Positions 5,201 to 60,146 of a stretch of 64,000 nt of DNA are shown piece by piece. The position numbers and the translations under genes were made by a program. Positions within the stretch are counted from its first letter, which is position 1, and each line of letters opens with the position of its first letter. The DNA lies in assembly GCA_963663765.2 (NCBI GenBank), contig CAXXUA010000004.1, positions 64,001 to 128,000 on the forward strand, read 5' to 3'. The DNA is from Candidatus Poribacteria bacterium (GTDB lineage Bacteria; Poribacteria; WGA-4E; WGA-3G). The notes under the pieces were generated by a model, which was not told the origin of the DNA, searched no databases, and saw only the letters and a program-made list of their open reading frames with translations.

Positions 5201-8200
5201 GCTCTGGATCGTGTGCTGCTGTTTCTGGCACTGTTTGCGAGTTGTTGATATATATTGACAGCTTCTTCATGTTGTTCTGTTTCCTTATAACACTTTGCGA
5301 GTAATTCGCTCAATATATCCACAATTGAACTACTACTATAACTGCTGCTTTTGTCTATAGCATACTTGGCGTATTTAATTGCACTCTCAAACTGTTTATG
5401 TTCAAAACTTATAGATGCAAGAGAACCGAGAAACCACATATCATTAATTTTGTTGTTTTCAAAAACTTTTTCTGCTTCACGGAACATTTCTTGTGCTAAA
5501 CCCTGTTGTCCACTGTTTGTAAATGCGTTACCAGCAGCATAGAAATTAGTTATGTTCTCTGGTTGTAGTTTTATTAACTTTTGATACACCTCAGCAGCTG
5601 CTTTGTAATTCTGTCCGCCTAAATAGATTTCTGCAAGTAATTCAAGAAAATCCGTGTTTTCAGGTTCATCATTAAGTTTATTTTCATAGAGTATTCTCAA
5701 CTTGTCCAGTTTTCCAGCACTGTTGTATGAACTAACCAATTCTTCACGCGCTTGTTCTTCCTTACTCTTATATGTCATGGTCGCGTTACTTGAATTTGAA
5801 GATCGATATGGACTACCAGAAGCGATATTATTGTCAAAGATTTCAAATACAGAATCGGTATCATCAAGTTTGACGTATACATCAAGCAATTCAGATGTGA
5901 TTCTTTCTCGATCATAGCTGTCTGTTGTCAAATCAAGTGCTTTTTTAAAAGCATCAACCGACTTATGTAAATCACCCTTTTTTTCATAGATTTGTGCTTG
6001 TTCTCTCTGCATCACTGCAGTGATAGTTCCTTCGTCCTCTGCCTTTTGTAACATCTCTTCTAATTTTCCTTGATAACGATACAAATTGATCAAATTCGCT
6101 TCTGTGTTTTCTCTATCCCACTGTGATGTCGTGAATTGGATAGCTTTTTTATATGCGTTTTCAGCAGCTTCCATGTTATCTTTGCGAAGGTATAGGTCAG
6201 CCATGTTTAGATGAATTTGTCGATTTCCAGCAGCATATTCCAATGCTTTTTCATAGTTGGAAATAGCTTCATCAACCTTATCTTCATCAATATATAGTTT
6301 TGCAAGACGTACGTAATGTACACTGCTTTCCGGTTCTGATTGGATGTATTCTTGGCACAATTCATACGCCTCCTTTATTTTTCCTGCAGACACATGACTA
6401 TTAACAAGTCCGTCCTGAAATTTGGTATTTTCTGGGTCGGAGTCAAGCAGAGAAGTCCATGTATTTGAAGCCTTTTCGTGTAAATTCAGACGAGTGTAAA
6501 GCCTTGCGAGTTCAGAACGCGATTCAAAGTCTTCAGGAGTGGATTTTGCAATCCGTTCGTATATACTTATTGCTCTTGCTACCTGACCAAGTCCCACCAG
6601 TTCTGTTGCAATAGCACGTTGCATGTGGATACTCATCGTCTGCGTCTGTTCGACCATCTGTTTTCTTGATGAAAGATCACCACGTTTTTGTATTGTATCT
6701 ATGTACATTCTTTGAGCATTGTCACGATCCCACCAATCAGCTGACAAGTCATTGATAATTCCTGCCAAGATGGTCTCAGCATCATCCCACATTTGGTATT
6801 TCATATATGTTGAAGCCAATCTTCTTCTCTCATATATATCAGTGTTGTTATTTCTCATCAATTGGAAATTACCCATCTTACGAAATGCGGTTTGTGCTTT
6901 TTCCAATTCACCGTTCGCTGCATAAGCCTCCCCAAGTCTATTGTAACAACTAACGACAGACCATGAGTTTTCTTGTTTCAGTTTTCTGGCAGCAGCCTCA
7001 AGTATCTGTGTTTGGAGATCATGTCCATCACTTGCATTGGCAAGATTATATAACCATTGTGTATTAACTGATGAGTGGTGATTCTCAATCAGTTGATTGA
7101 CATGTATGCTTGCTCCATCAATATCCTCAGCCATCAGTTTCATTCTTGCTACAATGTAAAGGAGTGTAGCGTTTGACGGATCGTCGTTCAGTATTGTTTC
7201 GTATTCAGTGATTAATTGTTCTAATTCATCCTTCTTTTTGTATAGATTAGAAAGTCTTTGTATATATGTTACATTAATGTCCGATATATCGTTGTTTTCG
7301 ATCTTTTCACGCATGTATTGAATTGCTTTATCTGGACCGCTTGCTGTTTCATGGAATTCGGAGATCTTTATTTCAAAAGAACTCTGTGTCATTCCAGTTT
7401 TATCCTGTTCAAACATCTCTGTTAAATACTGAATAGCTTTTTCAGGTTCATCATTCTTAGCATATATAGTTGCCAATTCTTGATATTGGTAGTTACGATT
7501 CGGTTGAACTTCAAGTATCTTTTCAAATAGTTCAATAGACTCTTTTGTTCTTTTTTCTGCAAGGCATCGTCGTGCAACCGCAATGGTAAATTCATCTCCA
7601 TAATATCTACCAACAGGTTGAATAATCTCTTTTGTTAGAGCAATCAGTTCATCTAATTTGTCTGAATGTACAAAAGCATCTATTGCATTTTCATAGTTGT
7701 AACCGAGTATGGATGAATCGCTTTTGAGAAGTACTTTATAATGAGGAATTGCGTCTTTCGCTTTACCGCTTCGTTCAAGCATCTGGACATAACGGAGACG
7801 GATGTTAATTTCCTTCGGACGTAGATTGAGTACTGACTTAAATGCTTCAGAAGCTTTTTGTATCTTATTTGTTCCCTCATAAAACATTGCTAATTTGAGT
7901 TGTGCATTGAATGATGTTGGGTTATTCTGCGCATCTTCAATAATTTTAGTTTCCCTGTTCTTTCTTTCTTTTACAGTACCAACTAAACTATTCGCCTGTT
8001 GAAAACTCCATGTTGACATCATGCGTCCATATTGGTCGGGACTGTTCGCAAACCGTAGTGCGCGTTCCGCTAATATAGCAGCATCCTGTCCTCTGCCAAG
8101 GTCAGCCAGATGGTCTCCCAGGTCTAATAGAAAGTTCGGATTGCGTTGTGTCATTGCCAATGTCATTGCTTTCTTAGCAGTTGCAATTGCGAATTGTGTG

Positions 8201-11200
8201 AAACCAGACTCTTGAAGCGTGATAGAGAATTCGTAAAGTTCTTGAGGACTTATCGGTGAGTTCATGAGATTGTTCATCACTTCCCGCAAGGTAATAGCAT
8301 CCCCAGTGTGAATTGCAAGTTGCAAGATCAGATCATTGTATTGGCGGCGGTTTCTTGGTTCTGACTCTGCAAGATCTTCAAGCATCGTTAGTGCTATTTT
8401 GTATTGACCACTTTGAATTGAGATATAGGCAATATTCAGTTTTAAAGTTAGGTCATCAGGAAAATCATTGTGTAACGTAGTGAGGATCTGTTGTGCTTTA
8501 TCACGTTTCTCATCCCACCAGTAGCAGTAGCTAAGAGCTAATCCAGGATAGACACGATCTCTACCGTTTGCAATATCCAATTCCTTTTGCAGTTTTTCGA
8601 AGAGTATCTCCTGTTTATTCCGTATCCATACCTCACGAAAAATTGATCTAAGATAGTTTAATCGTTCAATATTGAAGTATGCTGTTGGAACCGGGAAATT
8701 GGACTGTACAGGATTATAGTAGCCATAGTAAGAGTATGAAGATTGTGCAAGTGAAGCAACACGTCTGGGATTAATAGTATTGGGATTCGTTCTTTCTAAG
8801 AAAGTCCAGAATACATCTAATGCTTTTTCTGTTGCTTCTTGTTCTATGTAAGCGTCAGTGATTTCTTCAAAGATTAATCTATATTCCCTGTGCTGTTTTT
8901 GGGGTGGTGTAGGTAAATTCAGTAGTATTTGTTCTGCAATGTCTGTCCTTTTGCTTAATAGGAAAGCACCAACTAACTTGCTGCTTACAGAGAGATCTGT
9001 GTGATTTTCTTCTTCGATCTCTTCTAACAGTCTTGTTGCGTCTTCTTTTTTGTCTTCAGTGTATAGTATTGCGGCATATTCTGCAAAATATCGAGCACGT
9101 ACAGTTGGAACTAAACCGGGTATATCGTCAATTGCTTTCTTGACTGATGCATAATTAAGGTCATCCTTCAATAGTAGCTGCAAACGAAGTGGTTGATATG
9201 CCAAATCGTTGGGTGATATATCTATCAACTTATTTATTGCAGTTTCTGCTTTATCTTTTTGCTGTATCAATGTATAAAACCTTGCTAACGTCTCAAGTGC
9301 TTTTACATCTGTTGGATTTGCTTGAACAACATCCTCAAAATGTTGAATGAGTTCAGAAAGTTTTCCCAGTTGCTGAGCGATTGAAACTAAATGCACAAGT
9401 GCACCTACTTGTGCCTCTTCAAAGGTCTTCGGAATCCATTGCACATTTCCTCCAGCAAAAGTCGATCTACTCTGTATTTCACTGATAGTACCCTGAGAAA
9501 TCTCAAATTTGTTAAAGGTAATACCAGGGATGTAAGAATAGTTATAAATTTCACTATATCTTGTAGCTTGTTTTGTGGTGTTTTCTGCAGATTCGGACAT
9601 ATCCAGTATGCGGTGGAAGTATGTCTGCGCGCGATCCGGTTCATTCATGCCAACTAACAACACACCCAACCTGTAAAGAGGTAAATGTGCATCAGTACCC
9701 GATATCTTTTCAGATGCGCGTTCAAGTACAAAAAATGCTTCTTCCGACAATCCGTGCCGAAGTAATAGAGCAGCAAGCTTCACCTCTGCTTCAAGCGTTT
9801 GATTTTTTGCGTGTAGTAACTTCGTCCAAGCTTGAATTGCTTCCTGTTCTCGTCCAGCATCAAATAGTAATTCACCCAGTTTCTGTTGATGAGTTGGGTC
9901 TGGATCAACTTTGACAAGTCGCTGTTGGTAAGTTAGTGCATCTTGTATATCACCCAATTCAGAACTGATTTCAACTAATTTGAATAAGAGTTCCGGATTT
10001 TCACGTTGTTTGTTTAAACCTTGTGCTAATTGGAAACGTGCACTGGGTAGGTCACCTTCCATACGGTGAAGTTCAGCAAGTGCAAGTACTGGTGCAACCC
10101 AAGCAGTATTTGATTTTGCTAACTGCTTTAGTTTTTCCTCAAACTCACCTTGTCTACCAAGGTCATAATAGACTTCAGCAAGTGGTTTGACAAAAGTCAG
10201 TTTGTCGTGAATGTCTTCACTCAAGTTCCAACAACGCCAATATTGTGATAGTGCTTCCTGTAACTTACCAGAGAGTTTATAGACCTTTGCTAACTCTGTG
10301 CGTGTGTCAATCATTTCTGGGCGCAGCCGAATTGCTTGTTTCAAACTGTCTATAGCGGCATCATAATTCTTAGCTTGCTTTGCTATCTGTGCGAGAAGTT
10401 GGTGTCCTTCAGGATTACGCGGACTATTCGCGATAACCTGTTTTGCTGCTGTGGTAGCGGACTCGTAGTCTAATATATCTAAATAGGACTTTGCTATATT
10501 TGCGTGGTACTCTCGTGCGTTTGCACTGTCTATCTCAATTAGCTGCAAATATATAGAATTTGCATCGTCGCGTCTACCTTGCCTATTGTATACCTTAGCA
10601 AGCCATCGATTCACACCTACATCATTTGGTTTTAGTTTCTTTGCATTCAGTAGAACTTCTAAAGCATGGGTGATATTGCCCAACTTAAGATACATTTTTG
10701 CGATCTGTTTTTGGTATAAGAAATTTTGGTCAGAAGCTATTTCTGATTTATCAAGTTTAGTTTCCAGTTCTTCTATTTTTTCTTGTAGTGTACCTTGTCT
10801 TCGGTAGAGTTCTATCCTTTTGTCATCCATTTTTTCTGCAAAAAATGCATTGGGTGCAAGTTCCATTGCTGCCGTGTATTCAGTAAGAGCTGCATCGTAA
10901 TCTCCACTCTCAATAAGGTGTTTGGCTAAAGTTTCACGGTATTTATACTCATCTGGCATCAACTCAACTGCTTTTCGTATGGCAGCAACTGCTTCAGTAT
11001 TGAAATGCTTTGCTTTGAATAATTGTGCGAGTCTATCATAGTTCGCTCCAATTGCTCTTTTTCCCTCAACCATCTGATTCCAAGTCTCAAGTGCTTTCTC
11101 ACGGTTACCTTGTCGAAAGTAGAAATCTCCATAATACTCAATATAATCCAGATTGTTAGGCGCAAGTGAGATTGCCTTTTCATACTGAGCAACAGCATCA

Positions 11201-12477
11201 TCAATCCATTCATGGCCAGTGTAAATTTCAGCTAAAATGATATGTGTTGCCGGATTATTAGGAGAACGGTCAATCATTCTTTGATAGACGGTTGTTGCTT
11301 TATCTGGATTGCCAATCTGCAGATACAACTCTCCAAGTTCTCGGTAAATACCGAAATCATCAGGGGATTGTTCGCTGAGTACTTCGTATTCTGCTGCTGC
11401 ATCTTGAAACTTTTCAATGTTTCGGAGTGTGGCGATAAGATTAAGTCGCAGATTTGTATCAGTAGGTGCAAGATCAATGCCCTTTCTGTAAGTGCTGATA
11501 CCTTCATCAATCTGCTGGTTTTCTATATATGCAGCTGCCAGCAAACCGAACAGTTCAGGTTCATTTGGGGTTGCATCAAGTTTATCTTGATAGAATTTTA
11601 TGAGATCTTCCCAATTTCCATCTGCTGCAAAAATACCGATGATACGGTGTTGTAGGTCTTTACGTAGCCAATTTCCCGGTGCTGTCAACGACAAAGCAGT
11701 ATCAAAACTCTTTATTGCTGCCTGAAAGTCACCTTTCACTTCTTGTATGATACCTATTTCTCGGTGACTCAGACAGATCCTGTATATATCATCCTCTCTC
11801 AATTTAATTATTGCTTCATATTGTGAAATTGCCTGCGAAAAAAGTTCTTGTTCACGGAATAGGTCAGCAATATCAATACGTGCAAAAATGTCATCAGGAT
11901 CAAGTTCAGTAATCTTCTTCCATGCCTGAATTGCTTCATCTACCTTGTCACGCGCAAAATATGCATGTCCAAGTGCTTTATATATGTCTGTTAACTCTTC
12001 TGGAGCAACATTTTGTGCCTGTTCAGATAATTTTGATGCAGTTGTTAATGCTTTGATCGCGTCTTCATGCTGACGCAATGTAGCATAGAACTTACCCAAA
12101 GCAAAATGTGGATAGTAATTTTCTGGTTTGAGTTCAACAGCACGTTGGTATACTTTAACTGCTTGGGTGTCCTTACCAAGACGTTTATATATGTGTCCTA
12201 AAATGAGTTGGAGGTTTGAGTCGTCAGGTTTTTCATTTGCTTCTGTCAGATAATCGTTTAGCATTGCATCTAATCCTGCACCTTCAAGGTAAAACTGATA
12301 GACGCGATCAAAAGTACTTCCATCTTTGGGTTTTTGATATAATATCTGTTTATAACGTTCAATGATTTTCTCATCACTGGTAACATCTTGTGCTATAGAT
12401 ATTGTATTCGCTGTGAGCATTAGGACAATAAGAAACATAAAACTATAGATAACTGATCTTTTTTCTCGTTCAAGCAT
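2284..12477 (-). CDS. Giant (3397 aa) secreted TPR-repeat protein with an inserted LamG domain and two C-terminal PA14-like/carbohydrate-binding modules
   Basis: Signal-peptide-like N-terminus and dozens of TPR motifs. LamG motifs (WTHIAGV, GQIDEVRIWN) at about 4260-4925. Two copies of WxxLGPFDN...DD...WLNGE...GxNTILxK. Confidence 0.85.
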   Translation of the reverse strand: MLEREKRSVIYSFMFLIVLMLTANTISIAQDVTSDEKIIERYKQILYQKPKDGSTFDRVYQFYLEGAGLDAMLNDYLTEANEKPDDSNLQLILGHIYKRLGKDTQAVKVYQRAVELKPENYYPHFALGKFYATLRQHEDAIKALTTASKLSEQAQNVAPEELTDIYKALGHAYFARDKVDEAIQAWKKITELDPDDIFARIDIADLFREQELFSQAISQYEAIIKLREDDIYRICLSHREIGIIQEVKGDFQAAIKSFDTALSLTAPGNWLRKDLQHRIIGIFAADGNWEDLIKFYQDKLDATPNEPELFGLLAAAYIENQQIDEGISTYRKGIDLAPTDTNLRLNLIATLRNIEKFQDAAAEYEVLSEQSPDDFGIYRELGELYLQIGNPDKATTVYQRMIDRSPNNPATHIILAEIYTGHEWIDDAVAQYEKAISLAPNNLDYIEYYGDFYFRQGNREKALETWNQMVEGKRAIGANYDRLAQLFKAKHFNTEAVAAIRKAVELMPDEYKYRETLAKHLIESGDYDAALTEYTAAMELAPNAFFAEKMDDKRIELYRRQGTLQEKIEELETKLDKSEIASDQNFLYQKQIAKMYLKLGNITHALEVLLNAKKLKPNDVGVNRWLAKVYNRQGRRDDANSIYLQLIEIDSANAREYHANIAKSYLDILDYESATTAAKQVIANSPRNPEGHQLLAQIAKQAKNYDAAIDSLKQAIRLRPEMIDTRTELAKVYKLSGKLQEALSQYWRCWNLSEDIHDKLTFVKPLAEVYYDLGRQGEFEEKLKQLAKSNTAWVAPVLALAELHRMEGDLPSARFQLAQGLNKQRENPELLFKLVEISSELGDIQDALTYQQRLVKVDPDPTHQQKLGELLFDAGREQEAIQAWTKLLHAKNQTLEAEVKLAALLLRHGLSEEAFFVLERASEKISGTDAHLPLYRLGVLLVGMNEPDRAQTYFHRILDMSESAENTTKQATRYSEIYNYSYIPGITFNKFEISQGTISEIQSRSTFAGGNVQWIPKTFEEAQVGALVHLVSIAQQLGKLSELIQHFEDVVQANPTDVKALETLARFYTLIQQKDKAETAINKLIDISPNDLAYQPLRLQLLLKDDLNYASVKKAIDDIPGLVPTVRARYFAEYAAILYTEDKKEDATRLLEEIEEENHTDLSVSSKLVGAFLLSKRTDIAEQILLNLPTPPQKQHREYRLIFEEITDAYIEQEATEKALDVFWTFLERTNPNTINPRRVASLAQSSYSYYGYYNPVQSNFPVPTAYFNIERLNYLRSIFREVWIRNKQEILFEKLQKELDIANGRDRVYPGLALSYCYWWDEKRDKAQQILTTLHNDFPDDLTLKLNIAYISIQSGQYKIALTMLEDLAESEPRNRRQYNDLILQLAIHTGDAITLREVMNNLMNSPISPQELYEFSITLQESGFTQFAIATAKKAMTLAMTQRNPNFLLDLGDHLADLGRGQDAAILAERALRFANSPDQYGRMMSTWSFQQANSLVGTVKERKNRETKIIEDAQNNPTSFNAQLKLAMFYEGTNKIQKASEAFKSVLNLRPKEINIRLRYVQMLERSGKAKDAIPHYKVLLKSDSSILGYNYENAIDAFVHSDKLDELIALTKEIIQPVGRYYGDEFTIAVARRCLAEKRTKESIELFEKILEVQPNRNYQYQELATIYAKNDEPEKAIQYLTEMFEQDKTGMTQSSFEIKISEFHETASGPDKAIQYMREKIENNDISDINVTYIQRLSNLYKKKDELEQLITEYETILNDDPSNATLLYIVARMKLMAEDIDGASIHVNQLIENHHSSVNTQWLYNLANASDGHDLQTQILEAAARKLKQENSWSVVSCYNRLGEAYAANGELEKAQTAFRKMGNFQLMRNNNTDIYERRRLASTYMKYQMWDDAETILAGIINDLSADWWDRDNAQRMYIDTIQKRGDLSSRKQMVEQTQTMSIHMQRAIATELVGLGQVARAISIYERIAKSTPEDFESRSELARLYTRLNLHEKASNTWTSLLDSDPENTKFQDGLVNSHVSAGKIKEAYELCQEYIQSEPESSVHYVRLAKLYIDEDKVDEAISNYEKALEYAAGNRQIHLNMADLYLRKDNMEAAENAYKKAIQFTTSQWDRENTEANLINLYRYQGKLEEMLQKAEDEGTITAVMQREQAQIYEKKGDLHKSVDAFKKALDLTTDSYDRERITSELLDVYVKLDDTDSVFEIFDNNIASGSPYRSSNSSNATMTYKSKEEQAREELVSSYNSAGKLDKLRILYENKLNDEPENTDFLELLAEIYLGGQNYKAAAEVYQKLIKLQPENITNFYAAGNAFTNSGQQGLAQEMFREAEKVFENNKINDMWFLGSLASISFEHKQFESAIKYAKYAIDKSSSYSSSSIVDILSELLAKCYKETEQHEEAVNIYQQLANSARNSSTRSRAKTAMTELAKTTKLYEKWIPKYLEKIKRNPNDANTRQTLAETYESTEQTALAVEQYEKISELQLYNPQWQKKLGDLYQKLPTEKRKTVKVIEDTALTLSGNRDFVEIHDSEVLDSLTEQVTLSLWMNPTGFSNNYIPIIFRGDEWDPGFKLRSYVLQLINDGGIQFASSPQDVHDIPIYAPAGTIKLNTWTHIAGVIDAKNNYIKLFINGNEVSHNNYNGQKSIHKSTLPLRIGWTHENKHPLHGSFVGQIDEVRIWNIARTQKQIRVDMDTPLNGDEDGLVGYWKFDVEKDEQILDTTPNNNHGKLIGDAKLESYERPIFETINSDVLTKAISAYQKAIELEPTTYQNYDLLAKTYMKMDQMSDAETVYRQALDAPLSQSSHDSAITALVGIFADEQHKEKRLAILEEIQPKMLKSAVLHDLLGNIYNELGDTEKAEQAFTQWLKIRQKQVYNSDYEYYYRTFAEELLEKGLFPKTAHTFAKRAVQTFTGTSYYYPAVLAETCVANQLYDDAIKYYKLAFSIVSNEYSYERIWDRIIDSSKYADDKKRFEQMLDEVLDTFTDESSTSRANGYRKIAHYYSNKGKKANAIEYTMKAGLVPETNWITLGPFDNTDAYGVQNAYIKEETTQIDPSAQYYGKGELISWKKSTYRSLDGHYVFTGDTESSSSYVWAVVVSPDDRDIVIKFDSDDQGAIWLNGEYVFNHDRTGAARIDRYTINTTLNQGENTILVKICNGSSDYDFYFRITDVDGIPYDDLHYKSADALLNTPPPPEPTFHVNVNLGWAEYYEKNDMHDKAIEQIRQTGIIHEEQWLVLGPFDNTASIGYDTAYIPEDITQIDRSAEYVGIDGKVSWQKHSDDAFNGLIDFGRNEDWRVSYAWTTVTSPVEREVQLRIGTDDQAKVWLNGEQVYTFETGRWVVVDKDIVPVTLKAGKNTILIKVCNEQLTWGFYMRFTDENGKPFDDLQYIDVSDDQ

Positions 12478-14994: not shown

Positions 14995-16416
14995 CTGACA
15001 TACTCCCCAAGCTAAAGCATGGGTGTTCTCAGTTCTTATATTGGAAACGGTTTGAGTTGTTTCCAAACGACTTTTCCTGCTTCCGTGTCTCGTGCCCTTT
15101 CCTGAACAGCGTTGGGTCTTATTTGCACTCCACAAGCGTGACTTTCGGTGTGCCCCACCGTAGTTGGTTTCAAGTTTATGGCAGCGTTGACATCTCTATC
15201 TATAGACATATCACATTGACTGCAGTGATACATTCTTTCTGAAAGTGTAAGGTCTTTCTTTTTGTGTCCACAACCGGAACAGGTTTTACTACTTGCAAAG
15301 AACTGATCTGCTTCTTTGACAGGTATACCGCGCACTTCCGCTTTTGTCTTGAGTTTTAGCAGGAAACCGCCTAATGCTGAATCTGACAATACTTTTGCGA
15401 GGTTTCTGTTCTTCAGCATATTAGTAACCTTGAGTGTCTCAATACCGATCGCAGCGGCACGGTTGACAATCTCTGTAGTTGCTTTGTGATGTGCGTCGTT
15501 TCGGATACAAGCGATACGATAGTGGATACGTTGTAACTCGTGTTTCTGCTTGAACCAGTTTTTAGACTTGAAAACACGACGGCTCAACTTGCGTTGTTCT
15601 CTCTTTAGCTTCCGCTCATAACGTTTTAGCGGTCGGGGATTATCATATTTCGTGCCATTACTCAAGGTGGCAAGTGTGTTGATGCCTACATCTACACCAA
15701 TCACAGGGTGCGTTGAATTATCAACTGCTTCGGTGTCCTCTGTTTCTACGGTGATAGATACAAACCAACGATGTGCTGTCCTTGAGATCGTCACTTTCAT
15801 AATCTTACCCACAAAACGCAATGATTCAAACATTCTAATCCAACCAATCTTAGGAAGTTTGATACGCTTGCCTTCAACTTCCACAGATTGATTATTTGTG
15901 GTGAATGCATCCTTTTTACCACGCTTCTTGAACTTCGGAAACTTTGCACGTTTACCAACCCAATTCGCAAGCGCAGCCGATAAGTTGCCAAATATGCTTT
16001 TGTTGGCTACAACCTGATCCATATCTTTTGTCCAAGCATGTTCTTTCTTAGCAACATTAAACCGCTTGTTTAACTTAGCAGCTGATAAGAACTCATCATT
16101 TGCCAATGCAGACTTGAAATCTGCTAATGCATGATTATATGCAAATCTCGCATAGCCACACTGTTGTGCAAACCAATTGCGTTGATTGTAATTTGGATTC
16201 AATGCAATCTTATGTGTTTTTAGCATGATGATATTCCAGTCCTATGAAGATGTCAGTTCCCTCTACTAAAGCTGTGTAGGTGTTAGTAGCACCTACACTG
16301 AACTGCTATAATGAGTATCTCATGTTTTAAACCAAAAATCAAGTGTTTTCTTGACACAAGCACTTAGCACGACTACATCCCACTACCTAAAGGTAGGGGT
16401 TTTGTCGTGATTCTTG
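14995..16416 (-). mobile_element. IS200/IS605-family non-autonomous (tnpB-only, IS1341-like) element
   Basis: Minus strand: left end TTTAT|CAAGAATC...CCCTACCTTTAGGTAGTGGG hairpin; right end GAAC-ACCCATGCTTTAGCTTGGGG-AGTATGTCAG. No tnpA. Exact ends inferred by analogy. Confidence 0.75.
15036..16226 (-). CDS. tnpB: RNA-guided endonuclease TnpB
   Basis: N-terminal HTH_OrfB (G.ARFAYN), RuvC residues GVDVG / IETL / DRDVNAA, and zinc ribbon CSGC...CSQC. Confidence 0.95.
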   Translation of the reverse strand: MLKTHKIALNPNYNQRNWFAQQCGYARFAYNHALADFKSALANDEFLSAAKLNKRFNVAKKEHAWTKDMDQVVANKSIFGNLSAALANWVGKRAKFPKFKKRGKKDAFTTNNQSVEVEGKRIKLPKIGWIRMFESLRFVGKIMKVTISRTAHRWFVSITVETEDTEAVDNSTHPVIGVDVGINTLATLSNGTKYDNPRPLKRYERKLKREQRKLSRRVFKSKNWFKQKHELQRIHYRIACIRNDAHHKATTEIVNRAAAIGIETLKVTNMLKNRNLAKVLSDSALGGFLLKLKTKAEVRGIPVKEADQFFASSKTCSGCGHKKKDLTLSERMYHCSQCDMSIDRDVNAAINLKPTTVGHTESHACGVQIRPNAVQERARDTEAGKVVWKQLKPFPI

Positions 16417-16941: not shown

Positions 16942-19431
16942 ATGAATAAAAAAACAATTCATATTTCTTTAACATTTTATATTTTTTTGTATGTTCTTCT
17001 AATAGTTATATCTGAAACAATTGCAGATCCTGTGGACATTCCTGATCCTGGCCTTCGCAAAGCATTAGAAGTGATGCTTAATAAGAAGCCGGGTGAAATA
17101 ATTACTGAGGCGGAAATGGGAGCGGAGAATTTCAAAATCCTTGGTGCACAGGAAAGGAATATTAACGATTTAACAGGACTTGAATTTGCAACCAACCTTC
17201 AATATGTATATCTTGAGTGGAATTCAATCTCAGATTTGTCACCGTTGTCAGAATTAACCAGTTTGGAACATTTACATCTTGAACATAACCAAATATCAGA
17301 CATTTCACCTCTCTCTAACTTTCCTGCACTAAAGAGTCTTAACATTTCATACAACAATCTTACAAGTCTGGAAGGTTTACCAGACCTAAGTTTGGTGTAT
17401 GCGCTCTTTTTACAACACAACCAAATAACCAGCATTAAACCTTTTATAGATCACACCGAATTCACCAGTGTCAATGACCCATATCGTGTTAATGTAGACT
17501 TGGAGGGTAACCCATTAGACGATGATTCTGCAAATATTTACTTTCCAATACTGTTTTTTGATAGAAGTATTGATGTATCTTTCACACTCACATTCATGAA
17601 GAAGGTTTCAGGTGATAAACAAACGGCATCCACCAACACGACGCTGCAACCGTTTGTCATCGAAGTATACAATTACAAAAATGAAAAACTATCGGGAGTC
17701 GCTGTGCGATTTGAACTTACTTCTGGTAGTGGTAGTTTTGTCAATGGTTACAAAAAATATGGTTACGAATCTTTTGATACGACAACTGATGCCGATGGCA
17801 AGGCTTCAGCAACACTAACTGCCGGATCAACAGCTGGCACTTACAAGATTTCTGTGTCTGCAACAATCGTGTATTCAAGTCATATTGGATCAGTAGGCAC
17901 TGGACCCTTTACTTTAACAATTAATGATCCCACACCAACTCAACAACAGGAAACAACACAACAAGAGCAAGAAGAAAATACACAACAACAGGAAACAACA
18001 CAAGAAGAGCAAGAAGAAAATATACAACAACAGGAAACGCAACAACAAGAAGAGGAAACGCAACAACAGGAAACAACACAACAAGTTAGTGAAGAACAAC
18101 AGGAAACAACACAACAACCTGAAACAAAGAACCTGTCTGAACCTGATCCAGATACACAATCTGAACAAAATCTGGAATCTGAGTCAGAACAACAGGAAAC
18201 AACACAACAAGTGAGTGAAGAACAACAGGAAACAACACAACAACCTGAAACAAAGAACCTGTCTGAACCTGATCCAGATACACAATCTGAACAAAATCTG
18301 GAATCTGAGTCAGAACAACAGGAAACAACACAACAAGATATTGAAGCACAACTATTGTCTAAATCTGAATCAGATATACAATCTGAACAACAACTTGAAC
18401 CGGAACCAGAAACAAATTATACTAAAATACCATTTGATTATCACTGGGAAAATGTTGGTAAAGTCGTTATTAGTGAGATTATGTTAGCGACGCTTGGAAA
18501 ATTTCCACAATGGATAGAGTTATACAATACTACTGATCAAGACATAGAGTTGAATGGGTGGAAAATCGTTGGAAGATATAAAGATGATTTAGATGCGGTA
18601 CACATATTAGAATCTCAAGTAATTACAATGTCAATAACAATAAAGGCTAAAGAAACAGTTTTATTAGTAAGTTATACATTACCAAATTTTAGGGACAGAG
18701 TTTCTGAAGGTTTTTCAAACAAAATCTGTTCTTTACAAGCAGCATCAATTAACCTTTGCAATTATAAGGGTCTCGTATTAGAATTACAAGATTCAGAAGG
18801 TAACCCTATTGATCGTATTGGCAATCTAAACGATAAGGACGAAATCGTATGGGAAATTCCTATACTTGTTCGAAATAAAAGAGTTTCTCTTATACGAAGA
18901 CTAAAATCGGTTCGATCACAAGAATATAATTTTTCATTTGGAATGAAAAAATTCGGTTGGTTTCCTGCAGAAAATGTAAAGGATTTGCGTGATAGTAATA
19001 ATCGTTATTTTTATGGCAGTTCAACTGATATCGGAACTCCAGGCTATAGAACAGAATCTGGTGAAATGTTACCTGTTACTTTATCATCGTTTCGTCCTCA
19101 ACTGAATCAAGATGGCCATGTTAGGTTGAGTTGGATTACTGAATCGGAATTAGAAAATGCTGGTTTCAATATCTTGCGTAGTGAGTTTAGAAAAGGTCCG
19201 TTTGTAAAAGTCAATCCGAAACTCATACAAGGTGCTGGTACGACGGGACAACGTAGTTTCTATTCCTGGACAGATACAACAGCAAAACCTGATGTTGAAT
19301 ATTACTACCGACTTGAAGATGTAGCTTTTTCAGGTGAACGACAAACCTTAACAACAAAACGTATAAAAGGAATGCTTTCAGCCAAGAATAGATTTACAAC
19401 GCAATGGGGACGACTAAAATCAAGACATTAA
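16942..19431 (+). CDS. Secreted internalin-like LRR protein with Ig-like domain, Q/E/T-rich linker, lamin-tail-like domain and TTxWGxLK C-terminal motif
   Basis: Signal peptide, IPDPGLR cap, LxxLxLxxNxIxD repeats, KVSGD.Q Ig-like motif, VVISEIM...QWIELYN, LPVTLSSF and FTTQWGRLK. Confidence 0.85.
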   Translation: MNKKTIHISLTFYIFLYVLLIVISETIADPVDIPDPGLRKALEVMLNKKPGEIITEAEMGAENFKILGAQERNINDLTGLEFATNLQYVYLEWNSISDLSPLSELTSLEHLHLEHNQISDISPLSNFPALKSLNISYNNLTSLEGLPDLSLVYALFLQHNQITSIKPFIDHTEFTSVNDPYRVNVDLEGNPLDDDSANIYFPILFFDRSIDVSFTLTFMKKVSGDKQTASTNTTLQPFVIEVYNYKNEKLSGVAVRFELTSGSGSFVNGYKKYGYESFDTTTDADGKASATLTAGSTAGTYKISVSATIVYSSHIGSVGTGPFTLTINDPTPTQQQETTQQEQEENTQQQETTQEEQEENIQQQETQQQEEETQQQETTQQVSEEQQETTQQPETKNLSEPDPDTQSEQNLESESEQQETTQQVSEEQQETTQQPETKNLSEPDPDTQSEQNLESESEQQETTQQDIEAQLLSKSESDIQSEQQLEPEPETNYTKIPFDYHWENVGKVVISEIMLATLGKFPQWIELYNTTDQDIELNGWKIVGRYKDDLDAVHILESQVITMSITIKAKETVLLVSYTLPNFRDRVSEGFSNKICSLQAASINLCNYKGLVLELQDSEGNPIDRIGNLNDKDEIVWEIPILVRNKRVSLIRRLKSVRSQEYNFSFGMKKFGWFPAENVKDLRDSNNRYFYGSSTDIGTPGYRTESGEMLPVTLSSFRPQLNQDGHVRLSWITESELENAGFNILRSEFRKGPFVKVNPKLIQGAGTTGQRSFYSWTDTTAKPDVEYYYRLEDVAFSGERQTLTTKRIKGMLSAKNRFTTQWGRLKSRH
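17940..18336 (+). repeat. Intragenic tandem repeats (QQETTQQ units; 126-bp duplication starting at 18064 and 18190)
   Basis: Two near-identical 126-bp (42-aa) units plus shorter CAACAGGAAACAACACAA units. Confidence 0.9.
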
Positions 19432-19471
19432 CCCAGTTGTATTTCAATGTTCCGACTACTACATAACCACG

Positions 19472-19499
19472 CGGACAATAAACAGTGATTTGTTGTCCG
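19472..19499 (+). terminator. Possible terminator hairpin after the LRR gene
   Basis: CGGACAATAAA-loop-TTTGTTGTCCG followed by AT-rich sequence. Confidence 0.35.
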
Positions 19500-19603
19500 T
19501 TATTATATTAATAAAATTCCGTGAACTTTTTTAGCATTTATATGACTAATAAGATGTAAATATCAATATCTTATGTTTATGAAAATTTGGAGATCTGATA
19601 AAA

Positions 19604-20935
19604 ATGAAGTTTATTGCACCAGTATTTATTTTTTTGATCCTTGTTTGTACTGCACTCCCTTGTTTTGGACATGGTGACGAGGAAGTTGCAGAAGATCAAG
19701 AGATGGTCAAATCAACCGGTTTATGGATATACAACGACCTTGAAAAAGGAATAACACAAGCTGAAGAGACAGGTAAACCGATGCTTGTTGTTTTCCGCTG
19801 AGTACCGTGAGTGTCCTGTCAAGGCATTGATGAACAGGTTGTTCGTCACGAAGAATCAATAAAAGATTTAATGGAACAGTTTGTATGTGTACGCATCGTA
19901 CAAGGTAACGGTATTGACCTATCTGTCTTTCAATTTGATTACGATCTCACTTTTGCAGCTTTTTTCATGAACGTTGATAAAACCATTTATGGTCGCTTCG
20001 GTACACGTGCAGAATACAGAAACGCTGCAAAGAATATATCTGTTGAAGGTTTTAAGCAAGCACTTGAAGCAGCACTTGAATTACACAAAGGTTATCCTGA
20101 CAACCAAGCAGTTTTAGCTGCAAAGACTGGTCCTGCTCCTTTAAAGAAAACACCAGAAGCATTTCCCGCATTACAACGATATCCATCTGATGTAAATTTA
20201 AGTAGACGTGTAGAAGGACAGTGTATACATTGCCACCAGATTGGTAAAGCACAACGTGAGATACATTGGTATGATAGGAAACCCGTACCAGATCAAGTGC
20301 TATATCCATTCCCAATGCCCGATGTGTTAGGGTTGAACTTTTCACCTAAACATCGTGCAAAAATTAGTAAGATTACACAAGGTTCGTCAGCAGAAAAAGA
20401 TGGTTTCAAACGCGCTGATGAAATTTTAACACTTGCTGGACAACCGATAATCTCAATTGCTGATATTCAATGGGTGTTACACCGTGCAAAAGACCACGAT
20501 GTATTACCAGTTACTGTGCTTCGTCATGGTGAAGAAATCAATCTTAATCTAACACTCAACAAAGGTTGGCGGAAAGCAAGCGACATCTCCTGGCGAACGA
20601 CAACCTATGAATTACGGCTTGTATCCTTGGGAGGTATGATACTTGAAGACTTGTCGAACACTGAACGCAAACAAAGCAATTTAAGCAATGATAATATGGC
20701 TCTGTTTGTTAAGGATTTGATGCGACGTGATCGTCGTGCAAATAGTCAGACAAATGCTCAAAAAGCGGGTATCCGACGAGGAGACATATTAGTCGGTTTC
20801 GGTGAACGAACTGATCGAGTCTCTGAAAGTAATATCATTGGATATGTGCTACAAGAACAAGCCAAAGCCAAGTCTTTACCTGTTAAAATCAACCGAAATG
20901 GAAATTTGTTAGATGTGAACCTATCACTTGAATAG
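19604..20935 (+). CDS. Thioredoxin-like/PDZ-domain selenoprotein (443 aa) with two in-frame UGA codons (UxxU) and a CxxCH motif
   Basis: ORFs 19604-19801 and 19811-20935 are in the same frame, joined by CGC TGA GTA CCG TGA GTG TCC TGT. The UGAs fall at the CxxC position after GKPMLVVFR. SECIS-like hairpin downstream. Confidence 0.85.
19829..19847 (+). promoter_or_regulatory. Putative bacterial SECIS element
   Basis: GATGAAC-AGGTT-GTTCGTC hairpin with a GGU-containing loop, about 27 and 36 nt downstream of the two UGAs. Confidence 0.6.
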
Positions 20936-20953: not shown

Positions 20954-21146
20954 CAGGACTTACGCAGTTTTCATGATCCAATTAAGAATTAAGACGAAAA
21001 CGATGTAATTTTCAGCATTTTTTAGGTTTCCGGCGCGCTTACAAAGCACCAAATCAAGTAATCAACGGAATGAATACCTTATGGTATTCCCCGGGTATGA
21101 ATGCCATTTAGGCATTCCCCGCCTACCGTTAGGTGCGTAAGTCCTG
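20954..21146. mobile_element. MITE family A, copy 2, carrying a nested hairpin micro-insertion
   Basis: Same TIRs; 5-bp duplication ATGAG; extra 71 nt at 21050-21120. Confidence 0.9.
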
Positions 21147-21178
21147 ATGAGAATTATAACTACATTAAAAGGATTGAC

Positions 21179-22375
21179 ATGTTACGTAAAATAACTCTTA
21201 TACTGGTTTTGTTTTCGATAGCTTGTATCGTTGCAATCACAATTAGTGCAATTGAATCTGCAGAAGAAGTTGATGCGGATAAAACAACTGAAATTGCTAA
21301 GATTTCAAAAGAACCGAACATAGTTGCTTTGTCAAAAGTTATGAAAACATTCCGTGATTCATTAACTGAAGAACTGCTTGTCGCTGCCTCCTATCCGCTT
21401 GGACATAAGGAATCGTATTCTTGGTCTAATCTACCAGCATCAAGGAACAGTGATCGTGGTGGTATTGAATTTGCTAAGTTGTCTTTAGATCAATTAACAC
21501 TTTTTCATAAAGTATTAGATGCATTCTTGAGTGATGAAGGTTTGACCAAAGTATCTCTGATAACAAAAAGAGCAAAAACAACACTCAGCGAAATTAAGAC
21601 AGATTTTTGGAATTCACGTCCCTACTTTATTGCCCTGTTTGGTAACCCAGAGACAGATGGTTCTTGGGGATTCCAACTGGATGGACATCATTTAGCATTG
21701 AACTTTCTGGTGCATGGGGATGAGGTTACTATTGTTCCGAATCATCTCGGGACACAACCCACAATCATAGACGGCGCGATAGTGCTTGAAGACGAAAGAA
21801 AACTTGCATTAGCTCTACTCAATAGTCTTGACACCAATCAGAAAACAAAGGCAATACAAAAAAGCACTCGTCGCGGCTTGAAGGTAGGACCTGGAAGCAG
21901 AACTGACCCTTACCTGAATTATGATTACTCAAACTTTGTTGGTGTTGGTTTGAAAGCATCTGAAATGGATGATGCGCAACAACAGAATCTCCGGAAACTG
22001 ATTAAAGCCTATGTCTACAATCTTGAAACTGAGTTTGCAGATATCTGGATGAAAGACATTGACGTTGAACTTGACGACACCTATTTTGCTTGGATCGGCG
22101 GAACAACAGAAAACGATTCCATTTATTATCGTGTGTTCAATCCAGCGGTTTGGATTGAATTTAACGACGAAGCAAGGGGTAGTGATGGTAAACCGAATCA
22201 TATTCATACGATCACCAGAGCACCCAACGGTAAAGACTACGGTATTTTTGCATTGAATAGAGGTCCAAGAACACTATTAGAACACTATGCAATGGCAGAT
22301 CATCATAAATCAAGTAAAGTGTTTTTTGATTATACAACCTCCGATTTATCAGTAAAAAAAGTGAAGGAGCATTAA
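21179..22375 (+). CDS. DUF3500 domain secreted protein
   Basis: Y...FG.P...WG....GHHL..N, Y.AW.G, YYR and NHIH motifs. ATG 21179 follows AAAAGGA and precedes a signal peptide; the ORF-track start lies inside the MITE. Confidence 0.8.
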   Translation: MLRKITLILVLFSIACIVAITISAIESAEEVDADKTTEIAKISKEPNIVALSKVMKTFRDSLTEELLVAASYPLGHKESYSWSNLPASRNSDRGGIEFAKLSLDQLTLFHKVLDAFLSDEGLTKVSLITKRAKTTLSEIKTDFWNSRPYFIALFGNPETDGSWGFQLDGHHLALNFLVHGDEVTIVPNHLGTQPTIIDGAIVLEDERKLALALLNSLDTNQKTKAIQKSTRRGLKVGPGSRTDPYLNYDYSNFVGVGLKASEMDDAQQQNLRKLIKAYVYNLETEFADIWMKDIDVELDDTYFAWIGGTTENDSIYYRVFNPAVWIEFNDEARGSDGKPNHIHTITRAPNGKDYGIFALNRGPRTLLEHYAMADHHKSSKVFFDYTTSDLSVKKVKEH

Positions 22376-23013
22376 TGTTTGATCAAGTTTTGTCAGAAGT
22401 TGAGCAACAGTGTCGTGAAGAACGGGTTCCAATGTTGGGACCAGATAAAGCAAAGTTACTTGCGACTACTGTTGAAAAGGCTAAACCCTCTCTCATTGTA
22501 GAGTGTGGTACAGCTATAGGTTACTCTGGTTTATGGATATTGCGTGTTTTGAAGACTTTAGGTTTAGGTCGTTTGATCACAGCAGAGATAAATCCTGAAA
22601 GCGCACAACGAGCAAGAGAAAACTTTAAAAAAGCTGGTGTAGCTGACCTTGTTGATTCACGAATTGGAGATGCAGCAGAAATATTAACAACAATTCAAGA
22701 ACCTGTGGATTTTTTGTTCCTTGACAACAACAAGGACGGCTATTACGCTTGTTTTAATGCAATTGAACCACAGTTAACCAGTCCTGCAACGATAGTTGCA
22801 GACAATGTTGGAAGAGCAGATCAGATGGCGGATTATCTGGAACATGTCCGATCTAACTACGAGTCAGAAACCCATTGGTTTGAAAGACGTCGAAGACGCA
22901 GACCTGATAGCGGTGGGGAAGCAAATCGTGGACCACGTAGACGAGACGGTGATGAAGGTAACAGAGGTCCACGCAGACGTGACGGAATGGAAGTTAGTAT
23001 TTTTCGTCGTTGA
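22375..23013 (+). CDS. Class I SAM-dependent O-methyltransferase
   Basis: VECGTAIGYS, GDA, DFLFLD and ADNV motifs; overlaps the upstream stop (TAATG). Confidence 0.9.
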   Translation: MFDQVLSEVEQQCREERVPMLGPDKAKLLATTVEKAKPSLIVECGTAIGYSGLWILRVLKTLGLGRLITAEINPESAQRARENFKKAGVADLVDSRIGDAAEILTTIQEPVDFLFLDNNKDGYYACFNAIEPQLTSPATIVADNVGRADQMADYLEHVRSNYESETHWFERRRRRRPDSGGEANRGPRRRDGDEGNRGPRRRDGMEVSIFRR

Positions 23014-28027: not shown

Positions 28028-29164
28028 ATGGAGAAATATAATCCTCTAACTGATCCGAAATTACATGAGATCTATGAAAAAGTAATAGCGAAAGAACGTC
28101 TATCGTTTGAGGATGGGTTAGCACTTTACGAGAGTCCAGATATAAATGGTGTCGGTTTAATTGCGAATTATGTTCGTGAACGGTTAAACGGGAATGTTAC
28201 ATTCTACAATATCAATCAACATATAGATTACTCCAATGTGTGTATCCTACATGCCCGTTGTCATTTTTGTGCGTTTGCACGGAAGAACATGCAAACAGAA
28301 GGTGCTTGGGAGATGAGCGTAGATGAGTTTTTGGATAAAGCCATGTATTCTATAGAACATGGATGTACCGAAATTCATAGTGTCGGGGGATTGCACCCAA
28401 AATTACCTTTTGACTACTATTTAAAGATTATTCGGGGACTCAAAGAACGGATGCCAGAAGTCCATTTAAAGTTCTTCACTGCGGTTGAAATACATCACTT
28501 TTCGCGTATATTTAAGATGTCAATAGAGGAAGTTTTAAAACAACTCCGTGAAGTAGGTTTGGATTCATTGCCGGGAGGTGGAGCGGAGATATTTGCTGAA
28601 GAAACCCGTGAGAAGATATGTCCTGGAAAACTCAGTGCAGAAGGATGGTTAGAGATACACGATATTGCACATAGTTTGGGTATTCCTACAAACGCAACCA
28701 TGCTCTATGGTCACCTTGAAACAAACGCGGATAGAGTTGACCATCTCATCAGGTTGCGTGAACAACAGGATAAATCTGGTGGGTTTGTAACATTTATTCC
28801 TCTTGCGTTCCATCCTGCGAACACTCGGATGGCATACTTACCCTCAACCACTGGATTAACTGATTTACGAAACATTGCAGTTTCTCGTTTGCTGTTGGAC
28901 AACATACCCCACATAAAAGTATACTGGATTATGACCGGATTGAAAACTGCACAGATTGCTCTCAGTTTCGGTTCAGATGATATTGATGGTACAGTAACAG
29001 AAGAAAAGATTACCCACATGGCAGGTGCTGATACACCGGAAGCTGTATCAGTTGAAGCACTTACACGTCTGATTGAAGAAGCAGGATATGTTCCCGTTGA
29101 ACGCGACACACTTTACAATGAAATAATTCGAGAGGGTCATCAGTGGTACAGAAAAGCCGCATAA
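28028..29164 (+). CDS. mqnE: Aminofutalosine synthase (radical SAM, menaquinone futalosine pathway)
   Basis: GGLHP, PGGGAEIF, NATMLYGH.E, FIPLAFHP and NIPHIKVYW motifs; adjacent to mqnA. Confidence 0.88.
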   Translation: MEKYNPLTDPKLHEIYEKVIAKERLSFEDGLALYESPDINGVGLIANYVRERLNGNVTFYNINQHIDYSNVCILHARCHFCAFARKNMQTEGAWEMSVDEFLDKAMYSIEHGCTEIHSVGGLHPKLPFDYYLKIIRGLKERMPEVHLKFFTAVEIHHFSRIFKMSIEEVLKQLREVGLDSLPGGGAEIFAEETREKICPGKLSAEGWLEIHDIAHSLGIPTNATMLYGHLETNADRVDHLIRLREQQDKSGGFVTFIPLAFHPANTRMAYLPSTTGLTDLRNIAVSRLLLDNIPHIKVYWIMTGLKTAQIALSFGSDDIDGTVTEEKITHMAGADTPEAVSVEALTRLIEEAGYVPVERDTLYNEIIREGHQWYRKAA

Positions 29165-29958
29165 GAATTGGTGCCGTGTCATTTTTGAACACGAAACCCC
29201 TGATTTATCCGCTCATGAGTTGTGACTTTCAGTCAGAAGAAATATCCCTCAGTTTACATTTACCCAGTCAACTTGCTTCAATGTTAGAAGATAATGAATT
29301 AGAAGTGGGTTTGATTCCAATTGTTGAATACTTTCGTGCAAATGATCGCGGAGATAGTTATCGTATTCTTCCAGGTATTTCAATCGCATCGCGCGGAAGT
29401 GTCTTAAGCATTCAATTGTTTAGTCATGTGCCGGTTCATGACATACAAAAAATTGCATTAGATACAAGTTCAAGATCATCAGTTGCTCTATTGAATATCT
29501 TGCTTGTTGAGAAATATCAAATATCCCCAGTTTTTGTTTCTTGTGAACCATCGGTAAATCCTACCACTGTTGATACTGATGCGGTTTTACTCATTGGTGA
29601 TGCAGCCCTCAAGAATCTGGGAGTAACAGAATATAGTTATGATTTAGGGTATGAATGGCATGAACTCACAGGACTACCTTTCGTCTATGCGTGTTGGGTT
29701 GCAAGGGAAAAAGTGGGTCTCGGAAACATCCCAAAATTGCTTACAGATGCAAAAGATATTGGTGTTAAGCAGATACCTGAAATAGCACAAATTGAATCAG
29801 AAAAACTGGGTTTACCAGAAGGTTTATGCAAGAGGTATTTGCAAGAACATATCCACTATGACTTGGATGAAACAGCAATTGCGGGTCTTGAACGATTTTA
29901 CGAACTTGCTGTGAAAAACAAACTTATCAAACCATCTGGGAACTTGCATTTTGTGTAA
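29143..29958 (+). CDS. mqnA: Chorismate dehydratase
   Basis: IGAVSFLN.KPL, SRSS..L, LLIGDAAL and DLG..W..LTGLPFVYA.W motifs. Confidence 0.92.
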   Translation: MVQKSRIRIGAVSFLNTKPLIYPLMSCDFQSEEISLSLHLPSQLASMLEDNELEVGLIPIVEYFRANDRGDSYRILPGISIASRGSVLSIQLFSHVPVHDIQKIALDTSSRSSVALLNILLVEKYQISPVFVSCEPSVNPTTVDTDAVLLIGDAALKNLGVTEYSYDLGYEWHELTGLPFVYACWVAREKVGLGNIPKLLTDAKDIGVKQIPEIAQIESEKLGLPEGLCKRYLQEHIHYDLDETAIAGLERFYELAVKNKLIKPSGNLHFV

Positions 29959-59762: not shown

Positions 59763-60146
59763 ATGCGGTTGTCACAAGAGGTTATTGCTGATCTGGTTGT
59801 GTTGCTTAGGCGCACTTCTGTGAGTTTGGCATGTGAAGAAGCGGGAGTGAGTGTTGGTTCGTATTATCGTTGGCATTGGGAGTCTCGTAAGCTATCTCGT
59901 CGGCGTGTTCCGAATTCCGTTGATACACCTTATGAGTGTTTGCTTCGTGAGTTCGGCAGGCGGACTCGTGCGTCTCGTAAGCATTATTTGTTGTGTAAGC
60001 GTGTAGTGCAAGGGAAAAAAGGAGCGGTACGAAAACGTAGTGTGAAGTTAGAAAGTGGAGCGGATGTCAATAATCGTAAACGGGTTCACGAACTTTGTAA
60101 GGAGACTGTGTCTCTAACATCATCAAATTTTGATTTTTTGGAGTGA
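59763..60146 (+). CDS. Small basic HTH protein (phage terminase small-subunit-like HTH)
   Basis: AC..AGVS..SYYRW helix-turn-helix; AGGAGG RBS. Confidence 0.6.
   Translation: MRLSQEVIADLVVLLRRTSVSLACEEAGVSVGSYYRWHWESRKLSRRRVPNSVDTPYECLLREFGRRTRASRKHYLLCKRVVQGKKGAVRKRSVKLESGADVNNRKRVHELCKETVSLTSSNFDFLE

Follow-up and report, generated by a model that had tools for sequence, protein, structure and literature searches.

Two in-frame UGA codons at the CxxC positions of a Trx7/PDZ family gene from Candidatus Poribacteria, conserved among relatives and probably recoded to selenocysteine

The Trx7/PDZ family of selenoproteins has been listed with the redox motif CxxU, where U is selenocysteine (Sec), in the family entries of PMC9312934 (2022) and PMC13188914 (2026), the latter of which gives one Sec. 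Within its account of new families, the 2008 Global Ocean Sampling (GOS) study (PMC2398784) described a 'putative secreted serine protease MucD' with two selenoprotein reads, 12 Cys homologues and the motif CxxU, and this study appears to be the source of the Trx7/PDZ entry of the reviews. Here, we have analysed a 64,000-nucleotide stretch of DNA from a Candidatus Poribacteria bacterium (GCA_963663765.2, contig CAXXUA010000004.1, positions 64,001 to 128,000 of the forward strand), hereafter the window, which contains a gene of this family at 19604..20935 (+). On the one hand, the protein encoded there shares with the curated family NF041199 and with the GOS MucD family the Thioredoxin_7 domain, the C-x-H-C-H motif, two PDZ domains and, as the second residue of the redox motif, a putative Sec (U69). 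On the other hand, a UGA codon also stands at the first position, so that the motif reads UxxU instead of the listed CxxU.

In other families, selenoproteins are known in which, as proposed for the window protein, a CxxC motif for redox or metal binding has given way to two Sec residues with two residues between them. The prokaryotic examples are the Prx-like thiol:disulfide oxidoreductase/Prx-like 2, a putative mercuric reductase-type metal-binding protein and FmdB, and the eukaryotic ones are SelL and the UxxU form of SELENOW. The study of SelL is said to have reported a diselenide bond. All of these, however, belong to protein families separate from that of the window protein. In the eukaryotic cases, the Sec insertion sequence (SECIS) lies in the 3' untranslated region, and the spacing problem of two nearby UGAs does not arise, unlike here. 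We rejected the window protein as a member of the Prx-like/SelL type: it has no peroxiredoxin-like homology, with no Pfam match to AhpC-TSA or Redoxin at E <= 1, and it would at most work like these proteins.

Among bacteria, the UXXU Group 4 [NiFeSe] hydrogenases (PMC13582414, 2026) offer a further comparison. According to the sections of that paper that concern the motif, a single downstream SECIS is proposed to decode both UGAs, and one of the sequences comes from a Poribacteria metagenome-assembled genome (MAG). The Sec residues of these cytoplasmic metalloenzymes coordinate Ni, whereas those of the window protein would form the redox pair of an exported thioredoxin-fold protein. These reports mean that the family itself, UxxU motifs in bacteria and the proposal of a single SECIS for two UGAs have all been published before. 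The UxxU form of the Trx7/PDZ family, its conservation in a symbiont clade and the synonymous footprint of its SECIS appear undescribed in the literature searched, and a full-text literature search found no report of UxxU for this family.

Read from the ATG at 19604, the gene comprises 443 codons and a TAG stop at 20933-20935. The only in-frame stops before this TAG are TGA at 19799-19801 (UGA 1, codon 66) and at 19808-19810 (UGA 2, codon 69), and translation of 19604-20935 with table 11 yields two open reading frames (ORFs) of 65 and 374 residues. The Thioredoxin_7 domain (Pfam PF13899, E 2.5e-15; residues 41-123, 19724..19972, +) is matched across both TGAs, and neither half of the split domain forms a domain alone. 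As the preliminary description of this DNA had proposed, the two UGAs (19799..19801 and 19808..19810, both +) occupy the first and the second Cys position of the CxxC motif; the second is the position of Sec in the reviews' CxxU. The local sequence is L-V-V-F-R-U-V-P-U-V-S-C-Q, in which R-U-V-P-U-V-S-C corresponds to residues 65-72. One helical turn past U69 lies a third thiol, Cys72 (19817..19819, +), giving the pattern C/U-x-x-C/U-x-x-C; it is invariant in a 17-sequence alignment and kept in most, not all, distant representatives.

We consider it likely that the product of this gene is a single exported member of the Trx7/PDZ (seleno)protein family, 443 residues long, in which both UGAs are recoded during translation, most likely to Sec, by way of one hairpin, and in which U-V-P-U constitutes the redox centre. 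One conserved hairpin, at 19829-19847, would recruit SelB together with Sec-tRNA(Sec), and these would drive the recoding. The resulting U-V-P-U centre would sit at the active site of the thioredoxin fold, followed by Cys72, and would cycle between a diselenol and either a diselenide or a selenylsulfide. The C-x-H-C-H segment and a tandem pair of PDZ domains like that of DegP follow.

Support for recoding comes from the relatives of this gene. A scan of contigs gave 26 loci, of which 24 are close (68-91% identity), 23 of them titled Poribacteria and one 'uncultured bacterium'. The closest relatives of the window protein are from Poribacteria MAGs, the best (locus L001) with 91% identity over the protein. 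TGA is present at both codons 66 and 69 in all 23 close loci that cover the site; locus L023, in which the first 124 residues are absent, was omitted from this count. A distant locus from Verrucomicrobiales (L026, 30% identity) also has TGA at both positions, in the form U-E-T-U. Cys codons occupy both positions in a locus from Planctomycetota (L025, 42% identity), and C-x-P-C, with a third invariant Cys after it, is found in each of the 16 full-length protein homologues (43-50% identity). The preliminary description had expected C or U at both sites among homologues, and we found Cys codons or TGA there, never Trp or another residue. Its argument that two chance nonsense mutations at exactly these codons are improbable gains from the sharing of both TGAs by the 23 close loci and L026. 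In 19 of the 21 loci that could be read to the end, there are exactly two TGAs and the frame is otherwise open at 441-444 codons.

Selection on the protein was estimated as the ratio of nonsynonymous to synonymous substitution rates (dN/dS, Nei-Gojobori) for the window and 19 loci. Because their dS was saturated, 13 to 71 of the 190 pairs were left out, the number varying from region to region. The ratio was 0.10 for codons 23-65, 5' of the first TGA, 0.05 for codons 70-123, the rest of the thioredoxin domain, 0.07 for the middle segment (codons 124-240) and 0.10 for the PDZ domains (codons 241-443). Purifying selection is equally strong on either side of the TGAs. Codon 67, between them, varies only synonymously (GTA/GTG/GTC).

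These values bear on the reading that the TGAs are true stops, in a gene that is broken or that makes separate products of 65 and 374 residues. Public gene callers do split the gene in this manner: 99 of the 120 best protein hits are C-terminal pieces of 269-383 residues without the thioredoxin domain, and the 65-residue N-terminal query retrieved 88 short ORFs, the window's own included, in a search that favours close relatives of the query. However, both TGAs are kept in 24 loci from two phyla, the segment upstream of them is under selection, true stops would cut the thioredoxin domain, the codon between them changes only synonymously, and a constrained hairpin lies 3' of them. The comparative data already contradict true stops, and we regard this reading as highly improbable. 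That TGA has been reassigned throughout this organism, to Trp or Gly for instance, is less probable still. Nothing beyond the two codons themselves speaks for it, whereas TGA terminates four of the 22 annotated ORFs of the window (TrpD, TrpC, BirA and the S-adenosylmethionine hydrolase), the profile matches of TrpD and TrpC reach within a few residues of the ORF ends, and the residue found in homologues at either site is Cys rather than Trp or Gly; reassignment is thus contradicted as well. Taken together, the conserved TGAs, the dN/dS values and the use of TGA as an ordinary stop make a pseudogene, two products or a reassigned code very unlikely. We conclude that the recoding of both TGAs is conserved and selected.

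Some of the loci are irregular. L018 and L022 have frame disruptions downstream of codon ~340; the former ends early at codon 403, and the latter has three extra in-frame TGAs. In L023, the homologue begins at residue 125 with unrelated sequence 5' of it, and a partial TnpB-like match adjoins. These irregularities could be real decay or indel errors of long-read assembly.

Bacterial Sec insertion relies on a SECIS shortly 3' of the UGA, and the preliminary description had pointed to a hairpin with a GGU loop at 19829-19847. Folding gave an 8-bp stem with a 3-nt GGU apical loop at this place (19829..19847, +; hairpin 2), which we treat as a putative SECIS. According to the legend of Fig. 2 in PMC13188914, the model of a bacterial SECIS (bSECIS) has a loop of 3-9 nt, a stem of 4-16 bp, a G in the first two loop positions, a UGA-to-loop distance of 16-37 nt and a minimum free energy (MFE) of -7.5 kcal/mol or lower. 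The distance from hairpin 2's loop is 35 nt to UGA 1 and 26 nt to UGA 2, and the hairpin lies within the loop, stem, G-position and spacing limits of the model for both codons, so that it could serve either. Across 25 sequences, 99.5% of its pair cells are standard-paired: four pairs are invariant, two change on one side in a G-U-compatible manner, one changes on both sides (in L026) and one is broken in a single sequence.

Synonymous variation gave a clearer picture than pairing. For 20 sequences, the mean synonymous codon diversity of the gene was 0.464 over 319 scored codon columns, and the 11 least diverse of the 281 windows of seven codons were all located inside codons 68-86. The minimum, 0.104, was at codons 75-81, which is exactly hairpin 2. 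The four-fold degenerate third positions in the stem are identical in 20/20 and 20/20 sequences for two Val codons and in 19/20 for an Arg codon. In the Cys-type locus L025, a hairpin equivalent to hairpin 2 was not found at the matching place. These comparisons of sequences show hairpin 2 to be under constraint at the RNA level, for which the synonymous constraint is stronger evidence than the pairing. The earlier proposal that one SECIS serves two UGAs accordingly agrees with the geometry and with the synonymous constraint; that a single SECIS is in fact used for both codons is what we infer.

Several observations weigh against this interpretation. The 19-nt hairpin 2 alone has an energy of -6.9 kcal/mol in the window and four relatives and of -5.2 kcal/mol in L013, compared with the model limit of -7.5 kcal/mol; it reaches -8.7 to -10.5 kcal/mol in the remaining 19 of the 25 sequences, so that six of the 25 miss the limit, which may refer to the energy of a longer structure. 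The local fold of 81 nt is thermodynamically ordinary (z = -0.8 against shuffled sequences), and the MFE fold of the window sequence in a 75-nt context swaps hairpin 2 for another pairing. Covariation is thin, with one compensatory pair, in the distant L026, and the 35-nt spacing of UGA 1 nears the upper limit of the model. At the gathering threshold, Rfam matched one tRNA only in the window, and its hits near the TGAs were at chance level (E >= 1.1). Long-range pairs that the RNAalifold consensus added were not trusted. Finally, selA, selB, selD and tRNA-Sec were found neither in the 64-kb window nor in the 26 loci.

A second hairpin could divide the task. Directly past UGA 2 there is a weak hairpin (hairpin 1; 19811..19827, +) with a G-first loop, which may be a lower or auxiliary part of the SECIS. 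If there were two tandem elements, hairpin 1 would serve UGA 1 and hairpin 2 would serve UGA 2. Pairing is found in 91% of the cells of hairpin 1, some hairpin is present there in 25/25 sequences, its loop lies 16 nt from UGA 1, which is the lower bound of the model, and synonymous diversity is lowered at codons 73-75 (0.12-0.27). However, its registers shift among relatives instead of being conserved, its energy of -2.9 to -5.3 kcal/mol falls far short of the -7.5 limit, diversity at codons 71-72 (0.42 and 0.39) is near the gene average, and the hairpin may be a mere lower stem or spacer. We consider two tandem elements rather unlikely, and prefer recoding of both UGAs through hairpin 2.

The identity of the inserted residue is most likely Sec. 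The support for Sec machinery in this organism is indirect and comes at the level of the phylum, from the supplements of two papers. In PMC13582414, a supplementary row for a Poribacteria MAG of class WGA-4E with a UXXU hydrogenase gives SelA, SelB, SelD and two tRNA-Sec genes. In PMC5649159, Supplementary Table S4 gives, by our own column count, COG hits for SelA, SelB and SelD in Ca. Poribacteria WGA3G, and the relevant part of the main text states that SelA and SelB co-occur in most sponge-symbiont bins. No other TGA-split candidate selenoprotein gene stood out in the window.

On the other hand, one or both UGAs might be read as Cys by the SelB- and SECIS-dependent tRNA-ReC (SelC*), in which case the mature motif would be CxxC, CxxU or UxxC. 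This route leaves the same genomic signature, namely a conserved TGA with a SECIS. In the portions of PMC13582414 that treat these tRNAs, tRNA-ReC-like genes are given for ~56% of the genomes with UXXU hydrogenases compared with ~2.3% of other Sec-type genomes, and the authors hold that one or both UGAs may be affected by tRNA-ReC; these figures, too, count against Sec at both positions. However, the Poribacteria row of the supplement of that paper has two tRNA-Sec in its SelC(-like) column and no other tRNA type. In addition, to maintain a costly UGA and SECIS in more than 20 species just for Cys is less parsimonious than TGC or TGT, which related lineages use. We judge the reading as Cys to be unlikely, slightly more so than the two tandem elements, and Sec at both positions remains our preferred assignment.

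The UxxU form may be common. Among the 88 short N-terminal ORFs, 74 end exactly at the first Cys position, and 14 end in R-C-x-P, the CxxU form, which suggests that UxxU is common among public short ORFs. When the best 150 representatives of 50%-identity clusters were classified by a regular expression, 34 had CxxC, four had degenerate motifs and 104 had no motif region; most of these 104 begin just past the motif, and a few are misses of the expression. A quick maximum likelihood tree was built from the sequence after the motif, with 48 rows (10 UxxU, 25 CxxC and 13 truncated). In this tree, all nine UxxU rows from Poribacteria group in a single clade, which has 100% support in the Shimodaira-Hasegawa-like approximate likelihood ratio test (SH-aLRT) and is nested among Cys forms, and L026 is far off on a long branch. 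Therefore, with the Poribacteria clade and the distant L026, the UxxU form needs at least two changes on this tree.

Membership in the Trx7/PDZ (seleno)protein family is shown by the profile matches. Against the NCBIfam model NF041199, 'Trx7/PDZ domain-containing (seleno)protein', the window protein scored 389 bits (curated cut-off 300; E 2.2e-116), with residues 41-441 on profile positions 2-389 of 390 of this equivalog model. L001, L010, L026 (374 bits) and the homologues P0106 and P0210 also pass the cut-off, Cys-type members included. PDZ was detected in 70/70 aligned family members and Thioredoxin_7 in 47/70, the rest being N-terminally truncated calls. The preliminary description had called the selenoprotein hidden; it is indeed missed by gene callers, but its family is already curated as a selenoprotein family, NF041199, and listed with CxxU and one Sec.

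The C-terminal part consists of the PDZ-like domains noted before, seen in Pfam as two PDZ_2 stretches. PDZ domain 1 (residues 242-318; 20327..20557, +; E 1.5e-13) aligns to PDZ1 of DegP/DegQ. PDZ domain 2 spans roughly residues 350-441 (20650..20926, +), with approximate limits; the DegP profile aligns over 247-436, and PDZ matches of RseP, DegS and AlgW occur at profile positions 338-432. A profile search of the whole protein against the PDB returned the PDZ part only, from position ~235 on. The tandem PDZ thus resembles PDZ1-PDZ2 of DegP/DegQ/HtrA, but unlike these proteins the window protein is without a trypsin-like protease domain. The DegP model TIGR02037 gave 58.6 bits against a cut-off of 416.2 and matched only profile positions 256-430, the PDZ part. 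Accordingly, given the missing protease domain and a score far below the cut-off, we reject the labels 'serine protease Do', 'peptidase' and MucD protease as misnomers.

The N-terminus has the form MK, a hydrophobic run and then C-F-G/H-G-D, and the hydrophobic stretch is kept in relatives. Judged by eye, this segment is a probable Sec-type signal peptide (residues 1-22; 19604..19669, +), with cleavage guessed after C-F-G; its dN/dS of 0.35 is above that of the rest of the gene. A Shine-Dalgarno-like GGAG, read directly from the sequence, is located at 19589..19592 (+), 11 nt 5' of the ATG, and the terminator-like hairpin of the upstream gene lies 5' of both, at 19471-19500.

Between the thioredoxin part and the PDZ domains, the C-I-H-C-H motif (residues 207-211; 20222..20236, +) was confirmed as a CxxCH-type sequence and may be a haem c or metal site. 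The alignment of 17 sequences shows no variation at C207, H209, C210 or H211, and CxxCH is present in 135 of the best 150 representatives. The extra His of C-x-H-C-H lies outside the minimal CxxCH haem c motif. The magnetochrome profile MCR gave 11.4 bits against a cut-off of 30.4, and five of 70 members match it at E <= 1 (best 0.071). No cytochrome profile scored above its cut-off for the window protein, and no other recurrent cytochrome family was found among the 70 members. Because the motif is near-universal but no cytochrome profile exceeds its cut-off, haem or metal binding is therefore a possible lead, not a finding. The magnetochrome-PDZ proteins MamP and MamE likewise have CxxCH beside PDZ, and the window protein has weak matches to the MCR and MamE profiles. 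However, the MamE matches cover the PDZ part and MCR stays below its cut-off, and we take the resemblance as a lead only.

In terms of function, the thioredoxin part weakly resembles the Thioredoxin_7 domains of DsbD-gamma, DsbH and the AGR2/ERp18 type. Searched alone against the PDB, it gave weak matches, first 3fk8 (E 0.009) and then AGR2 and TXNDC12. With low confidence, we suggest an exported oxidoreductase in which the PDZ domains hold polypeptide clients and U-x-x-U(-x-x-C) exchanges disulfides. The protein would then be periplasmic, and the disulfides of its clients would be reduced or reshuffled. In general selenoprotein chemistry, selenium lends speed and resistance to over-oxidation. 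A more far-reaching picture can be drawn, in which a Poribacteria clade and an independent Verrucomicrobiales lineage possess a thioredoxin-fold enzyme of the periplasm that carries a natural diselenide (U-x-x-U, with Cys72 behind it) and is made by two SelB insertions 9 nt apart from one 19-nt SECIS, with a haem or metal at C-x-H-C-H exchanging electrons with the Se-Se centre and the PDZ pair holding a client. We offer this full picture tentatively and consider it doubtful as a whole.

The neighbouring genes (a leucine-rich repeat (LRR) protein, DUF3500 and O-methyltransferase) gave no functional lead. Downstream are a DUF3500 gene (21101-22375, +) and an O-methyltransferase gene (22375-23013, +), both assigned by Pfam. 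By tblastn (E <= 1e-5), 17 of the 26 loci have a match to DUF3500, which in two cases is short and partial, and 21 of 26 have one to the O-methyltransferase, in one case over 23 residues; both are syntenic in most Poribacteria loci, a synteny among close relatives only. No terminator-like site was found between 20935 and the DUF3500 gene, and the three genes are possibly co-transcribed. Directly upstream of the Trx7/PDZ gene lies a repeat-rich LRR/lamin-tail protein (16942-19431).

Several other features of the window, whose G+C content is 40.5%, were observed. A 17-nt motif, GCGCGCTTACAAAGCAC, has 59 copies at <=1 mismatch compared with 0 expected. It forms tandem arrays at 33817-34356 and 45654-48035, with periods of 31 to 134 nt, and single copies at 14027, 21033 and 51657, one single copy being located between the Trx7/PDZ and DUF3500 genes. 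The second array, ~2.4 kb long, has 58% G+C in a 40% G+C window; the repeat could be REP-like or a satellite. An array of clustered regularly interspaced short palindromic repeats (CRISPR) runs from 61579 to 63963 (+), to the window end, with 28 copies of a 37-nt repeat spaced ~72-79 nt, the first two degenerate; the ORFs just upstream of it (59763-60146 and 60150-61223) had no NCBIfam or Pfam match. The window also contains a gene for an IS200/IS605-type TnpB RNA-guided endonuclease (15036-16226, -; NF040570, 277 bits, cut-off 100), a giant ORF of 3397 residues (2284-12477, -), largely tetratricopeptide repeats (TPR) with a Laminin_G_3 domain, and a second TPR protein of 957 residues (51704-54577). 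At 28028-29958 (+) and 40562-41308 (+) there are menaquinone genes of the futalosine pathway (MqnE, VitK2_biosynth family) and a gene of the GGGP/heptaprenylglyceryl-phosphate synthase family.

In summary, in this study, we describe a Trx7/PDZ gene of Poribacteria that, like about 100 database relatives, is entered either in two fragments or under the label 'peptidase / serine protease Do', and for which the correct product would be a single secreted selenoprotein. Reviews give CxxU with a single Sec for this family; the UxxU form described here is conserved in two phyla. As its two UGAs stand 9 nt apart and are followed by one hairpin under strong constraint, the gene is a test case for SECIS spacing, a question that has lately been raised for hydrogenases. 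If our interpretation is true, one bacterial SECIS tolerates two UGA spacings on the same mRNA. If a diselenide forms, sponge and coral symbionts would have a thioredoxin-fold Se-Se redox centre at work in their oxidising periplasm, and this would be relevant to the apparent enrichment of selenium use among them.

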